Shown here: positions 16,021 through 20,674 of the stretch, one piece after another | Numbering within the stretch: position 1 is the first letter of the stretch | Layout of the letters: each line of letters opens with the position of its first letter | Assembly (NCBI GenBank): GCA_946646575.1 | Contig: CAMPCR010000002.1 | Coordinates: forward strand, 1,408-65,407 | Origin: an uncultured Verrucomicrobiota bacterium | Lineage (GTDB): Bacteria > Verrucomicrobiota > Verrucomicrobiia > Opitutales > UBA9783 | Direction: 5' to 3' | DNA length: 64,000 nt | Program-made: the position numbers and the translations under genes | The notes under the pieces: generated by a model | Seen by the model: the letters and a program-made list of their open reading frames with translations, nothing else | Databases searched by the model: none | What the model was told of the DNA's origin: nothing

Positions 16021-17103
16021 ATGAATATGAAAAAATCACTGAAATATCTCGTTGCGGCTGCCGTTGCGGGCAGCGCCTGTACGGCTGACGTTTTCGGAGG
16101 GAAGATTAGCGTCAATCTGTTTTCCTTTTGCCATGGAGATAATTGGCGGAAGCTCGCGAACTTATGGGGTCAATCTCCGAAGGAAGTCTACGAACAGTGT
16201 CTGAGAGAGGGATTAAGAGAGAAATTGAATAATACGCATTTGTATATTCTGATTTCTTCTTACAAACAGGCGGAAATATACGGCAAAGAGATTGTTAACA
16301 GCATGGAAGCCAACGCGAAAAACCTGGCGGATCTCGGTGTTACTTCTCACATTATCGTTCGTTGCGACGGAGAAAAAACGGAGAACGGGGAAGATGTTAT
16401 TTCGGGCGATCTTCGGACGTATGCCAAACTTTTGAACGCAAAGGAGATTGCCTTTAATGTGCACGAATCCAAAAGTGTCAAACCGTCGGATTTTACCTAC
16501 GAACATCACAAGCCCAATGAAGCGCATTGGGAGTTGGTTGCCAACGAGCAAAATCTCGGTTGCAGCGGAACGCGTCACGAGAGTATCGATGCGATTGAGA
16601 AGGAAGTTAATCAACTGAGCGAACAGGGAAAGCATGTGTACATCGGAATTTTTGACGGCGACGATTGGGTGCATGAAGACTTTTACCCGGTGTTGTTGCT
16701 CAATGCGCTTTATACAAATGCGCCCGTTTCCAACTATAACGGGCGAATGGGTGCTCACGGACTCGAATACGAAAACTTGCGGGAGGGTCGTCTGTTGGGT
16801 ACCGATGAGCAGTGCACTTGGACGTTATACACGGATATGAAGAGCGATGACGTTGAAGAAACCCTGAGTAAGCAATACGCGAATTCGGGTTACGGTGGCG
16901 AGTGTTGTACGACAAAGATTTTCAGAGCGGATTATTTCTACAAAAGATTGAATTCGTTATTGGAGAAAGAGCTGAAGAGGAAGTCGGATGCACAACGAAA
17001 TTGGATCGACTTAAGGGATCTGACATTGCTGGACGGATTTTGCGACGGTGCCTGTACATGTACAACAGAGAAGAACTTGTTCCATTATACGCAACATAAA
17101 TAA
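16021..17103 (+). CDS. Exported/anchored GT-A (GT2-like) glycosyltransferase-like protein, paralog 1
   Basis: Signal/lipobox-like LKYLVAAAVAGSAC. Shared family blocks: THLYILISSYKQ, MEANA, VRCDGE, AHWELVANEQNLGCSGTRHESIDAIEKEV, HVYIGIFDGDDWVHEDFY, VSNYNGRMGAHGLE, CCTTKIF and CTCTTEKNLFHYT. Confidence 0.8.
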   Translation: MNMKKSLKYLVAAAVAGSACTADVFGGKISVNLFSFCHGDNWRKLANLWGQSPKEVYEQCLREGLREKLNNTHLYILISSYKQAEIYGKEIVNSMEANAKNLADLGVTSHIIVRCDGEKTENGEDVISGDLRTYAKLLNAKEIAFNVHESKSVKPSDFTYEHHKPNEAHWELVANEQNLGCSGTRHESIDAIEKEVNQLSEQGKHVYIGIFDGDDWVHEDFYPVLLLNALYTNAPVSNYNGRMGAHGLEYENLREGRLLGTDEQCTWTLYTDMKSDDVEETLSKQYANSGYGGECCTTKIFRADYFYKRLNSLLEKELKRKSDAQRNWIDLRDLTLLDGFCDGACTCTTEKNLFHYTQHK

Positions 17104-17148
17104 AAATCGTGTAGACTTTTGCAAACAAATTTCCTTATATACAGAATT

Positions 17149-18336
17149 ATGAATAAAGTCATCCGAAATCTGTTTCTGTTGTTTGCTTCTGGGATCTCTA
17201 TGGCATTTTTGCCGAATGCAATTGGAGAACCATTACTTGCAAATTATTTGTTATCGCAGGAGTGTGTCCGCCAAGAGTTGAAGAAAACGCATTTGTTCAT
17301 CCTGATCTCATCCTACCAGCAGGGGCATCTTGCGAACTCCATTGTTAAATGCATGGAAGCGAATGCACAACGTCTAAGGCAGTTTGATGCGGAAATGACA
17401 ATCGCGGTGCGTTGCGACGGAGAAACGGAAGATAATGGCAAAGCGGTTCTTTCGGAAGATATTCGGGCTTATGCCGAAGCGTTAAAAGAAGCGAAAATTG
17501 CCTTTAGGGTGCTGGAATCGGAACGCGTCAAGGTGTCGGACTTTGAGCATCAGTATCATAAACCTGATAAAGCGCATTGGGAGTTGGCTGCAAACGAAAA
17601 AAATCTCGGCTGCAGCGGAACTCGGCACGCAGGTATTGATGCAATTGAAAAAGAAGTGGAGGAGTTGTTAAAAAAGGGCGAACGGGTATATATCGGCATT
17701 TTCGACGGCGATGATTTTATTCATCCGGACTTCTACCTGCTGTTGACGGCAAATGCGATTTATACTGGTGCAACCGTTTCAAATTACAACGGTGAAATCG
17801 GAGCGCACGGACTAGAACAGTGGTCGTTGTTGAGGCCGTATGACAAGCCGTTCTTCGGTTCGACTGCCGAAGAAGAGTACTACCAGTTGTATAGAGGTAA
17901 AAATGAGTTCGGACTAAATGAGTTCTGTGATAGCCGGGCAAAAGAGTTGGGCGAAGCGAGAAAAGCGGAGTTAGGTACATTGGTATTGTCCGGTGCTTGC
18001 TGTACCACTAAGATCTTTGAAGCAGGATATCTTTACGACAAGCTGGCTGCTTTAGCCAAACAAAAACCGAACAACAATCGTCATGCGATTGATCTCTTTA
18101 CTTTGGTGCCTCTGGAAAGTTTCAACGATAAGGCGTGTACGTGTACAACCGATAAGAGTTTGTTTTTCTATAATGAAAAAGGGAGAGTGCGCTCTTTGAT
18201 GGAGTTAAGGTGCTACTTGATGGAGTTAAGGTACTACTCGATGAGTCTAGACTTATCGGAAGACGACACGGAAGAAGAAGCATTTAAAGAGGATCCAAAA
18301 GATCCGGATTATCGGAGCTATTTCAAGATTTTATAA
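17149..18336 (+). CDS. Exported/anchored GT-A (GT2-like) glycosyltransferase-like protein, paralog 2 (acidic C-terminal tail)
   Basis: The start was moved to ATG 17149 (MNKVIRNLFLLFASGISMAFL). It has the same blocks as paralog 1 (THLFILISSYQQ ... RVYIGIFDGDDFIHPDFY ... CCTTKIF ... CTCTTDKSLFFY), plus a tail ending in PDYRSYFKIL. Confidence 0.8.
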   Translation: MNKVIRNLFLLFASGISMAFLPNAIGEPLLANYLLSQECVRQELKKTHLFILISSYQQGHLANSIVKCMEANAQRLRQFDAEMTIAVRCDGETEDNGKAVLSEDIRAYAEALKEAKIAFRVLESERVKVSDFEHQYHKPDKAHWELAANEKNLGCSGTRHAGIDAIEKEVEELLKKGERVYIGIFDGDDFIHPDFYLLLTANAIYTGATVSNYNGEIGAHGLEQWSLLRPYDKPFFGSTAEEEYYQLYRGKNEFGLNEFCDSRAKELGEARKAELGTLVLSGACCTTKIFEAGYLYDKLAALAKQKPNNNRHAIDLFTLVPLESFNDKACTCTTDKSLFFYNEKGRVRSLMELRCYLMELRYYSMSLDLSEDDTEEEAFKEDPKDPDYRSYFKIL

Positions 18337-18370
18337 TGGTTGAAAGAAATACCGGGAATACAAAAGCTTT

Positions 18371-19612: not shown

Positions 19613-19620
19613 TTCCTACC

Positions 19621-19662
19621 TGTACGACAATGGGAAACTTATTCCATTATACGAAACATTAA
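19621..19662 (+). pseudogene. Relic 3' end of a family member (14 codons, CTTMGNLFHYTKH-stop) in the paralog 3 / paralog 4 spacer
   Basis: tgt acg aca atg gga aac tta ttc cat tat acg aaa cat taa translates to CTTMGNLFHYTKH*. This matches the C-termini of paralog 1 (CTCTTEKNLFHYTQHK*) and paralog 4 (CTCTTKENLFHYTRHGF*). Confidence 0.55.
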
Positions 19663-19675
19663 TAGGAACGGTGTC

Positions 19676-20674
19676 ATGGTGAGCAGTAAAATTATGAAAT
19701 ATGTCGGTGCAATGGTTTTATCGGCGGTGTGTTTCATTAACAATGCTTCCTGTACGAAAGAGCATTGGTCGCTTTGGTCTATGGTGTCTTCATGCGAGAA
19801 AGAACTTAAAGGAACGCATTTATATATCCTGATTTCCTCGTACAAACAAGCCGCGGAGTATGGTGAAAAAATCGTAACGAGTTTAGAAATCAATGCGCAG
19901 TGCCTGATGAACAGTGATGTAATACCGCATATCATCGTTCGTTGCGACGGCGAAAAGGAGAACGGGCAGGATGTTATTTCGGGCGATCTTCGGACGTATG
20001 CCGAAATTCTAAACGAAAAAAAGGTTGCTTTTAAGGTACATAAATCCAAAGGCGTTGAACCGTCGGATTTCGCTTACGAACACTATAATCCCGAAACGGC
20101 GCATTGGGAGTTGGTTGCCAACGAACAACGTTTCGGTTGCAGCGGAACGCGACACGCCGGTATTGATATGATCGAACAGGAGGTTAAGCAATTGCAGCAA
20201 CAGGAAAAGCGTGTATATATCGGAATTTTTGATGGAGACGATTGGGTATGTGACACATATTTTTTGCTCCTGTTAAGTAATGCGCTTTATACGAAGGCAC
20301 CCGTTTCAAACTACAACGGACGAAAGGGAGCGCACGGATTGGAGTATTATGAGTTGGCGGAAACGTGGGGGACGGATGATGGGATCGATACTTCTTATTT
20401 TTTATACACTAACGTCGCAAGAGATTATGTTTCAGAAACTCTGAGCAAAGAGCAAAACGGCTCCGGTATTTGTTGTACGACCAAAATTTTCGAAGCGGGT
20501 TATTTCTATAAAAAATTGGACGAATTGTTTGAAAAAGAAAAATCTAAAAATCCAAAAGCCACACGACATTATATTGATTTATTGACTTTGACACCGTTGG
20601 ACGGATTTTGCGAAGGTGCTTGCACTTGTACAACGAAAGAGAACTTATTTCATTATACAAGACATGGATTTTAA
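19676..20674 (+). CDS. Exported/anchored GT-A (GT2-like) glycosyltransferase-like protein, paralog 4
   Basis: Signal/lipobox-like YVGAMVLSAVCFINNASC. Family blocks: THLYILISSYKQ, VRCDGE, AHWELVANEQRFGCSGTRHAGIDMIEQEV, RVYIGIFDGDDWV, VSNYNGRKGAHGLE, CCTTKIF and CTCTTKENLFHYT. Confidence 0.8.
   Translation: MVSSKIMKYVGAMVLSAVCFINNASCTKEHWSLWSMVSSCEKELKGTHLYILISSYKQAAEYGEKIVTSLEINAQCLMNSDVIPHIIVRCDGEKENGQDVISGDLRTYAEILNEKKVAFKVHKSKGVEPSDFAYEHYNPETAHWELVANEQRFGCSGTRHAGIDMIEQEVKQLQQQEKRVYIGIFDGDDWVCDTYFLLLLSNALYTKAPVSNYNGRKGAHGLEYYELAETWGTDDGIDTSYFLYTNVARDYVSETLSKEQNGSGICCTTKIFEAGYFYKKLDELFEKEKSKNPKATRHYIDLLTLTPLDGFCEGACTCTTKENLFHYTRHGF

Follow-up and report, generated by a model that had tools for sequence, protein, structure and literature searches.

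This report concerns a tandem array of four genes, G1 to G4, in a stretch of 64,000 nucleotides from an uncultured Opitutales bacterium of the Verrucomicrobiota (assembly GCA_946646575.1, contig CAMPCR010000002.1, positions 1,408 to 65,407), hereafter called the window. The genes encode a rare enzyme family that, judged from its sequences, appears to be exported, unlike almost all enzymes of the glycosyltransferase family 2 (GT2) type. We consider it an even chance (probability of about 0.5) that G1 to G4 are exported and catalytically competent enzymes of the glycosyltransferase A (GT-A) fold; this probability is divided about equally between enzymes that would act on or in another cell and enzymes that would act in the envelope of the producer.

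The four open reading frames (ORFs) lie on the forward strand, encode 360, 395, 413 and 332 amino acids and are separated by spacers of only 45, 34 and 63 bp. The proteins are paralogs that can be aligned over their full length, with pairwise identities of 41 to 62% and 97 invariant columns. Comparisons between the copies by tblastn gave E values between 1e-52 and 1e-119, and the similarity is therefore not due to chance. A fifth full copy was not found with tblastn in the 64-kb window. In its ORF lengths and spacers, the array corresponds to the four tandem same-strand paralogs that an earlier sequence-only reading of this DNA had described. Each of the four copies contains all the motif blocks listed in that reading, with their order unchanged; however, G4 has LEINA in the place of MEAN(A/V), and G3 has ARWEL in the place of AHWEL. 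The array had also been described as richer in AT than the genomic backbone, and its GC content was indeed 41.0 to 45.8%, compared with 49 to 55% in the housekeeping neighbors.

The fold of the family was assessed with an AlphaFold2 (AF2) model of G1, calculated from a family alignment of 30 sequences, which had a mean predicted local distance difference test score (pLDDT) of 81.6 and a predicted template modeling score (pTM) of 0.85. The order of its strands (E) and helices (H) is E72-80, H84-104, E108-115, H129-140, E170-174, H180-201, E205-212, H221-232 and E236-239. A Foldseek search of the Protein Data Bank (PDB) with this model returned 92 matches at E ≤ 1e-3, of which the best 50 were all GT-A folds. 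The top matches were mostly GT2 enzymes, namely, CgT (5hea), RmlT (8bz4), TarS (5tzi), TarP (6h2n), and the hyaluronan synthase of a Chlorella virus (7sp9), with E values from 2e-7 to 1e-5; a few of the best 50 were ADP-glucose pyrophosphorylases, which have the same fold. The search of a viral structure library also yielded GT2 and GT-A proteins, at E values from 8e-7 onward. Considering the quality of the model and the agreement of both libraries, G1 to G4 are predicted to contain a GT-A nucleotide-binding domain.

Comparisons of sequence profiles pointed in the same direction. PF00535, the Pfam family of GT2 enzymes, gave sub-threshold matches in 19 of the 30 family members (best E value, 9.4e-4), and no other Pfam family recurred meaningfully. 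Alignment of the wide family alignment (A3) with a GT2 profile using hhalign gave an E value of 6.5e-5 and a probability of 64% over 106 columns, which correspond to residues 72 to 228 of G1. This GT2 profile is thin, as it contains four sequences: WcaA, WcaE and ArnC of Escherichia coli, taken from the annotated K-12 record, and a presumed sequence of SpsA of Bacillus subtilis (the numbering of D39, D98 and D99 agrees). In the resulting register, LYILISSYKQ of strand beta1 is placed on LISIYMPTWNR, IIVRCD116G on MIIVDDCS, NLGCSGTR185H on NSGACAVRN, and YIGIFD212GD214D215 on YITGIDDDD. Within the limits of a four-sequence profile, the nucleotide-binding half was thus found to be homologous to GT2 enzymes, and its motifs aligned with theirs. 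With SpsA alone, hhalign gave no significant match, and the sole aligned stretch was GTRHESI on KTRYAAL. The resemblance to GT-A and GT2 enzymes, originally noticed from the order of the motifs, was hence borne out by structure searches, Pfam matches and profile alignment. Taken together, these comparisons suggest that the family descends from GT2-type GT-A enzymes and works like them, despite failing the Pfam threshold.

The most conserved part of the family appears to be its putative donor- and metal-binding signature, since the invariant residues fall there. In the wide alignment, which includes relatives down to 20 to 25% identity, only L69, R185, D212, D214 and D215 were invariant, and C115, D116, D130, N175 and N178 were nearly so. 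The three aspartates of the FDGDD motif were invariant in 27 sequences, again down to 20 to 25% identity. In the model, strand 205-212 ends at D212, and D116 likewise lies at a strand end, which is also the case in GT-A enzymes; FDGDD aligns with DDDD of WcaA, TDD of SpsA and the corresponding region of the Pfam GT2 family; the proposal that it represents the DxD motif agrees with its hhalign register, in which it falls on the DxD(D) of GT2 enzymes. The CD pair of RCDG, nearly invariant in the wide family, is aligned with V-D-D of GT2 enzymes, and the segment WELVANEQNLGCSGTRH, which includes the nearly invariant N175 and N178, is aligned with the N..G...aRN helix start. A nucleotide-sugar and metal-binding signature is therefore predicted in its canonical places, namely, ILISSY of beta1, D116, R185 and D212-x-D214-D215.

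The other half of our reading concerns the N termini, which were inspected with a rule-based scan for charge, hydrophobic stretch and small residues. All four copies displayed the layout of a type I signal peptide with n-, h- and c-regions. The net charge of the n-region was +3 in G1, +2 in G2, +4 in G3 and +2 in G4, followed by an uncharged stretch of 14 to 20 residues with a hydrophobic core of 11 to 15. After the core, small residues precede an acidic or polar region with a charge of 0 to -3, and the pattern A-x-G followed by E or G recurs across orthologs (NAFGE, NAIGE, NALGG). Of the 42 family sequences scanned, 40 showed the signal layout, among them relatives belonging to other phyla; it was not seen in P0023, which is truncated at the N terminus, or in P0047 from Holosporales. 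Plainly exported proteins of the window (a LysM protein, orf108 and orf540) also had this layout, and the cytoplasmic neighbors did not. In the G1 model, residues 1 to 25 form a detached helix with a pLDDT below 50. The hydrophobic N-terminal strings quoted in the sequence-only reading were exact, and its view that every copy carries an export or anchor signal is consistent with the scan and with the conservation across the family. As the hydrophobic cores are short, a cleaved signal is favored over a membrane anchor, and the signal is probably cleaved. Lipoproteins were considered and rejected: the lipobox [LVI][ASTVI][GAS]C is not matched by G1 (GSAC), G3 (LNSC) or G4 (NASC), and the cysteine is not kept in orthologs (...NNAFGE).

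Several observations weigh against the reading of G1 to G4 as exported, competent GT-A enzymes. As to family membership, the PF00535 scores were 14.3 bits for G1, 15.6 for G2 and 19.0 for G3 (E value, 0.0014), with no match for G4; all family members remain below the gathering score of 23.3 bits, and a formal assignment to GT2 consequently fails. Searches of PDB sequences with profiles built from 4 and 30 sequences gave nothing relevant, the chance match being PAN2 (E value, 0.58). The Foldseek TM-scores were modest (0.35 to 0.43), which indicates that only part of G1 superposes well, and it is only the N-terminal half that does so convincingly. In accordance, the hhalign match to GT2 stops at residue 228, and the C-terminal half matches nothing outside the family. 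Inverting GT2 enzymes have a conserved Asp or Glu base some 80 to 100 residues past the DxD (D191 in SpsA), and no invariant Asp or Glu that could serve as catalytic base was found after D215 in the family alignments. A manual register with SpsA would place the base position on the invariant C295/C296 of GxCCTT; distant relatives mostly have D or E in the column of C295. Export, in turn, was judged by explicit rules of thumb with cytoplasmic proteins as controls, and the segment may be a signal anchor instead of a cleaved signal. Lastly, GT-A and GT2 enzymes need nucleotide sugars, which are cytoplasmic.

Some of these points would be accommodated by an exported GT-A scaffold that no longer transfers sugar and serves as a nucleotide- or glycan-binding protein, a nucleotide-sugar hydrolase, or a surface or adhesion protein. 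The lack of a conserved candidate base past the DxD, the invariant Cys-Cys pair that the manual register would put in its place, a C-terminal half with no detectable relatives beyond the family, and the absence of a known donor beyond the cytoplasm are all in favor of such a loss. However, D116, R185 and D212/D214/D215 show strict conservation even in relatives with 20 to 25% identity, which argues that nucleotide and metal binding are still under selection, and retaining GT-A enzymes need no catalytic base. We therefore regard a lost transferase activity as quite improbable. As for the base, a retaining mechanism, the use of a different residue and a change in activity are each conceivable.

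The compartment in which donors are found bears on a second alternative, according to which G1 to G4 are cytoplasm-facing GT2 enzymes that synthesize envelope glycans or glycolipids and the hydrophobic segment is their membrane anchor. It would be in line with the GT2-like fold and motifs, the cytoplasmic location of nucleotide sugars, the presence of kdsB and glmS within a few kilobases, and the name "glycosyltransferase family 2 protein" given by the Prokaryotic Genome Annotation Pipeline (PGAP) to two distant relatives. In contrast, the charge bias around the core (+2 to +4 before, 0 to -3 after) predicts, by the positive-inside rule, an N-in/C-out orientation; cores of 11 to 15 residues are short for a membrane span; and a conserved pattern of small-x-small residues, followed by acidic ones, lies past the core. 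Furthermore, no genome has a flippase, a polymerase or other glycan-assembly genes in the slot, and variable copy number and a raised ratio of nonsynonymous to synonymous substitution rates (dN/dS) are unusual in core envelope enzymes. Although this alternative carries some weight, we hold it to be unlikely.

If the proteins are exported, the source of the donor has to be accounted for. We know of no nucleotide-sugar pool in the periplasm of diderm bacteria, in which, as far as we are aware, all well-understood extracytoplasmic glycosylation proceeds with lipid-linked donors and GT-C enzymes. Since no periplasmic donor is known, the enzymes would act where donors exist, in or at another cell, would use a supply in the envelope that has so far escaped recognition, or would have shifted in activity. 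Our proposal is that each member of this small, divergent GT2-like family would be made with an N-terminal Sec-type signal and would cross the inner membrane. It would still bind a divalent metal and a nucleoside diphosphate (NDP) sugar and transfer the sugar, with donor binding provided by the conserved N-terminal half; differing acceptor specificities would be set by the tails of G2 and G3, by residues 313 to 343 and by the poorly conserved loop that separates GAHGL from CCT.

The way in which the sequences vary is consistent with such a division of labor. Identity between the paralogs was 68 to 77% in residues 170 to 250, compared with 22% in the signal and linker, 22% in the 251-292 loop, which also carries 17 inserted columns, and 36% in residues 313 to 343. 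Replacements between orthologs followed the same pattern and were concentrated in linker, loop and tail. This fits a putatively constant donor site combined with variable acceptor-facing parts. The dN/dS values between orthologs, estimated by the Nei-Gojobori method, were 0.35 to 0.84 for the array genes, whereas in the same genome pairs proS, kdsB, pfk, glmS and the NIF3-family gene gave 0.02 to 0.13. The array is thus much less constrained than its neighbors, whereas values below 1 in every pair indicate that its genes are maintained and functional. The family had been called diversifying, which holds insofar as dN/dS is raised but not in the sense of values exceeding 1. Between the window and locus L003, the synonymous rate (dS) of G2, G4 and G1 was 0.10 to 0.31 as compared with 0.28 to 0.82 in the flanking genes; these rough estimates hint at a recent exchange of array segments between lineages.

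The family is tiny and lineage-restricted, carries no annotation and nearly escapes Pfam. A search of 5.8 billion clusters by word index retrieved 33 family proteins, and an exhaustive hidden Markov model search of 1.84 billion representatives retrieved 20 at E ≤ 1e-3. All named close members come from metagenome-assembled genomes (MAGs) labeled "Opitutales bacterium." In the GTDB species set, the family was found in three genomes only, namely, RGIG5041 (roe-deer rumen), a bin named "uncultured Verrucomicrobia bacterium" and Tb.RUG.38. Further contigs look like they derive from rumen metagenomes of cattle (STEW19) and sheep (SHIW14), going by the record names alone.

When the same array was sought in related genomes, as the sequence-only reading had suggested, the slot turned out to be constant, between kdsB, in some loci accompanied by def, and proS, with one to four copies in differing order. 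Loci L001 and L009 contain one copy, and Tb.RUG.38 (L014) contains one long copy; RGIG5041 (L008) has at least three, in the order G1-G2-G3, and L003 has four, in the order G3like-G1-G4-G2. Orthologs of G1 (76 to 83% identity) and G2 (79 to 81%) occur in both L003 and L008, that of G3 (88%) in L008 and that of G4 (91%) in L003. Because each paralog of the window has an ortholog with 76 to 91% identity elsewhere, the duplications predate these lineages, and the order was shuffled later. A scar of this shuffling is found in the G3-G4 spacer. Its frame reads ..PTCTTMGNLFHYTKH followed by two stops, the corresponding direct repeat (D4) shares 76% identity with the 3' end of G1, and the scar hardly differs from the G1like-to-G4like junction of L003, which shows that the order of the array has changed. 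The G2-type gene of L003 ends with the tail that G3 has in the window, and gene ends are thus mosaic. We conclude that the array goes back to duplication at a single, fixed slot, from def/ffs to proS, with ancestrally one copy, and was reshuffled by recombination between copies.

In the first array gene of L003 (L003:10001-11236; protein P0026), a G1-type signal (MDMKKSLKYLVAVAVAGNAC) is fused before a complete G3-type N terminus. A G1-type signal on a G3-type gene implies that the first ~60 nt follow array position 1 and not the paralog type, and the true start of this gene may be the internal Met.

The fragment in the G3-G4 spacer, together with the AT richness of the array and the dN/dS value of 0.84 in one pair, could be taken as a sign that the genes are functionless, being either duplicates in decay or artefacts of gene calling. 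We give this hardly any credence, as all four ORFs are intact and each has an intact ortholog elsewhere, 97 columns are invariant among the copies, and no ortholog pair reaches a dN/dS of 1. A role in anti-phage defense was also considered and dropped, as the PADLOC models gave no match at E ≤ 0.1.

Distant relatives (P0035 to P0048; 20 to 25% identity) are found in low-GC bacteria and are single-copy, nearly all with a signal-like N terminus. They keep the CDG, N..N.G(C)S.TR, FDGDD and FFYxQH blocks, and their PF00535 matches are also sub-threshold (19 to 22 bits over profile positions 2 to 130). Unlike the close family, they have no CCTT and TCTT cysteine blocks, and many have an extra C-terminal region of ~200 residues that ends in KPLSxxFxxxFYxDVFDxxxG and is foreign to G1 to G4. 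The two clusters that received the PGAP name mentioned above come from another Opitutales MAG and a Holosporales MAG. On contigs with ~30% GC and alphaproteobacterial-looking genes, the relatives P0050 and P0127, which also carry this C-terminal region, are arranged tail-to-tail with vgrG. There are three such loci (L006:10001-13687, L007:1457-5143 and L015:10001-13761), two of which share one protein; in L015 the relative and vgrG overlap by 4 nt. For these distant homologs, the adjacency to vgrG suggests an interaction function, although a convergent orientation is not the usual arrangement of effectors. A second homology search started from P0038 returned only 8 proteins, and the AF2 model of P0038, based on an alignment of 7 sequences, was too poor for structure searches (pLDDT, 56.8).

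These relatives bear on the part of our reading that places the enzymes at another cell. The proteins would then be secreted glycosylating effectors or toxins that leave the cytoplasm by Sec export, pass the outer membrane in a further step and use the uridine diphosphate (UDP) sugars of another cell, such as a rumen protist, with paralogs that diversify by target. The sequence-only reading had hypothesized host-modifying effectors of this kind, which would be a special case of our own reading. The export signals, an array that is expanded, rearranging, AT-rich and raised in dN/dS, and a periplasm with no donor for an exported GT-A enzyme all argue for it, as do the relative from a Holosporales MAG and the vgrG-adjoining ones on low-GC contigs. 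In addition, rumen ciliates harbor bacterial symbionts, but the survey that reports them does not mention Verrucomicrobia or Opitutales (bioRxiv 10.1101/2025.07.29.667580). Our literature searches retrieved neither an exported bacterial GT-A family nor a rumen Opitutales symbiont. Further points speak against effectors: among the best 50 PDB matches, GT2 enzymes of cell walls, such as those of wall teichoic acid, and of polysaccharides prevail, with no GT44, GT88 or NleB-type toxin; neither a translocation or receptor-binding domain nor a secretion system adjoining the array was found; the window has ordinary glycolysis, lipopolysaccharide (LPS) and glycogen genes and looks like that of a free-living bacterium instead of a reduced symbiont; and dN/dS is below 1. 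We thus put forward only tentatively, and consider it rather doubtful, that the array represents a new class of Sec-secreted effectors of a rumen verrucomicrobium, directed for example at ciliates, in which the reshuffling would reflect an arms race over acceptors and the vgrG-linked relatives of the Holosporales type would be the same weapon in symbionts of protists.

The comparison with characterized systems delimits what is particular to the family. With GT2 enzymes such as SpsA, TarP/TarS of Staphylococcus aureus, RmlT of Listeria monocytogenes and WcaA/ArnC, it shares the GT-A fold, being structurally closest to them, the order of motifs (S-Y-x at beta1, an Asp ending beta2, the Arg at the helix start and a putative DxD(D) ending beta4) and PF00535 as the sole Pfam family matched repeatedly. 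In contrast to GT2 enzymes, which are cytoplasmic or anchored C-terminally, G1 to G4 have an export-type N terminus, have private C-terminal blocks (S237-x-Y-N-G-x-x-G-x-H, G293-x-C-C-T-T-x-I-F and T-C347-T-T...L-F-x-Y, all invariant) with no recognizable base, and are encoded in a reshuffled tandem array outside a glycan-assembly locus. The glycosylating toxins (the GT44 large clostridial toxins, Lgt1-3 (GT88) and SetA of Legionella, NleB/SseK, and PaTox) have a GT-A fold and a DxD motif, as predicted for G1 to G4, and act after delivery to the outside of the producer. Like the array, they are often lineage-specific, AT-rich and multi-copy. However, none of them is among the best 50 of the 92 PDB matches, no Pfam or NCBIfam match to toxin GT domains was obtained, with NCBIfam returning only noise for the copies, and toxins rely on type III or type IV secretion systems or on their own translocation domains, whereas G1 to G4 carry a plain Sec-type signal. 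The family could be assigned to none of the glycosylating-toxin families tested. A third likeness is to the eukaryotic type II GT-A enzymes of the Golgi apparatus and endoplasmic reticulum, which have a short charged N terminus, a hydrophobic segment, a poorly conserved stem, a GT-A domain and several conserved cysteines. Golgi enzymes act in a non-cytoplasmic compartment and depend on nucleotide-sugar transporters, for which we know of no counterpart in the bacterial periplasm. No eukaryotic relatives were detected among the 1.84 billion representative proteins, and the best structural matches were bacterial and viral GT2 enzymes.

The coordinates of the array and its surroundings are given in Table 1. 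For G2, an alternative TTG start at 17119 would give 405 amino acids; the ATG at 17149 is the start common to orthologs (MNKVIRN...). The genes follow one another in the order glgC, glmS, a NIF3-family gene, kdsB, def, the array, proS, the pyrophosphate-dependent phosphofructokinase gene (PPi-PFK) and the glyceraldehyde-3-phosphate dehydrogenase gene (GAPDH). Judged from these neighbors, from glmS to GAPDH and including the signal recognition particle (SRP) RNA gene, the array was rightly described as lying outside any polysaccharide locus. As the SRP RNA gene occupies positions 15720 to 15816, the longest ORF calls across this segment are spurious. The Rfam scan detected no regulatory RNA within the array, with ffs upstream as the only match, and a promoter and terminator scan of positions 15500 to 21000 gave counts at or below the shuffled expectation and is uninformative on operon structure. 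The C-terminal tails of G2 and G3 carry P-D-Y-[RK]-x-Y-F-K after an acidic stretch (18304-18327 and 19571-19594, respectively), and G1 and G4 do not have it. Apart from tails of the G2 and G3 type, no ORF in the window or in the loci used for comparison contains the motif, and a sorting tag common to other proteins was therefore ruled out.

Table 1. Position of the array genes, their motifs and the bordering genes in the window
Feature	Position	Strand	Description
def	14437..15564	-	With ffs, left boundary of the conserved slot
SRP RNA (ffs)	15720..15816	-	Rfam RF00169, 62.5 bits (gathering score, 40); within the 456 bp that separate def from G1
G1	16021..17103	+	360 aa; predicted exported GT2-like GT-A protein; type seen in single-copy relatives
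G1 signal-like N terminus	16021..16098 (aa 1-26)	+	MNMKKSLK / YLVAAAVAGSA / CTADVFG; uncharged stretch of 14; V-F-G at -3/-1
RCDG	G1 16360..16371 (aa 114-117)	+	D116 at the end of strand 108-115; equivalents: G2 17410-17421, G3 18665-18676, G4 19940-19951
WELVANEQNLGCSGTRH	G1 16528..16578 (aa 170-186)	+	Contains the invariant R185
FDGDD, putative DxD(D) motif	G1 16651..16665 (aa 211-215)	+	Ends a beta strand; equivalents: G2 17701-17715, G3 18950-18964, G4 20228-20242
G2	17149..18336	+	395 aa from ATG; C-terminal acidic tail ends in PDYRSYFKIL
G2 signal-like N terminus	17149..17226 (aa 1-26)	+	MNKVIR / NLFLLFASGISMAFL / PNAIG, then E
G2 C-terminal extension	18172..18333	+	Not in G1 or G4; acidic stretch, then PDYRSYFKIL
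G3	18371..19612	+	413 aa; most divergent copy; C-terminal tail ends in PDYKTYFKVGSAE
G3 signal-like N terminus	18371..18463 (aa 1-31)	+	Core SILVTSLLLWL
G3 C-terminal extension	19475..19609	+	Same PDY(K/R)xYFK motif
Recombination scar	19617..19674	+	G3-G4 spacer; last ~45 nt, stop and downstream spacer of a G1-type gene; tblastn fragment
G4	19676..20674	+	332 aa; nearest copy is G1 (62% identity)
G4 signal-like N terminus	19676..19756 (aa 1-27)	+	Core YVGAMVLSAVCFI
proS	20893..22377	+	Right boundary of the conserved slot; Pfam matches; flank also in L001, L003, L009 and L014

The peptide deformylase encoded next to the array has an insertion inside its Pfam domain (204 residues on 152 profile positions), and its C terminus is extended by ~125 residues rich in Lys and Glu; the protein measures 294 to 375 amino acids among relatives, and the gene is not at this position in L001. 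Other observations concern the remainder of the window. Between glgC and glmS, an ORF of 1,143 amino acids (6838-10269, +) has a signal-like N terminus, 119 cysteines (~10%), a GC content of 46% and no Pfam match; its place is taken by an ORF of 1,242 amino acids in L003 and by none in L001. An ORF of 377 amino acids (54454-55587, -) with a signal-like N terminus (MKNITKNMFLLVSALTVGVNC), 17 cysteines, 43.5% GC and no Pfam match is a candidate exported orphan. Six long ORFs with no Pfam match (25237-26001, +; 29499-30452, -; 33516-35573, -; 38143-40554, -; 45566-46912, -; and 47074-47892, -) are interleaved with gyrB, gyrA and the ribosome recycling factor gene; three of them have 40 to 42% GC and the others 48 to 50%, with 50 to 55% in the housekeeping genes. 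Some may be miscalled, because two overlap the ends of the gyrB and gyrA ORF calls. A peroxiredoxin of the AhpC/TSA type (48576-49334, +) carries a cysteine-rich, metallothionein-like N-terminal extension, MEEVKCEKNKTCGCGDNCECNCCDCGCCCEMN. Finally, an ORF of 181 amino acids with no Pfam match (24557-25102, -) starts with MEVKKTRKIRGFLSIELMLVLTVMAILGG, which resembles the class III signal of prepilins and pseudopilins (G-F-x-x-x-E), and its product could be a component of a type IV pilus or of a machinery for type II secretion.

A conserved and selected GT2-like family that combines intact putative donor-binding residues with export signals represents a compartment puzzle. If the N terminus is only an anchor, G1 to G4 would be ordinary divergent GT2 enzymes, and their interest would be one of annotation. 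If the proteins are truly exported and active, this would imply a donor outside the cytoplasm, an action in another cell, a GT-A scaffold with a new activity, or a combination of these. Bacterium-protist interactions in the rumen type of ecosystem are only now being mapped. With a fixed locus, a copy number that ranges from one to four and clear orthologs, the array also offers a compact natural experiment on how acceptor specificity may diversify.

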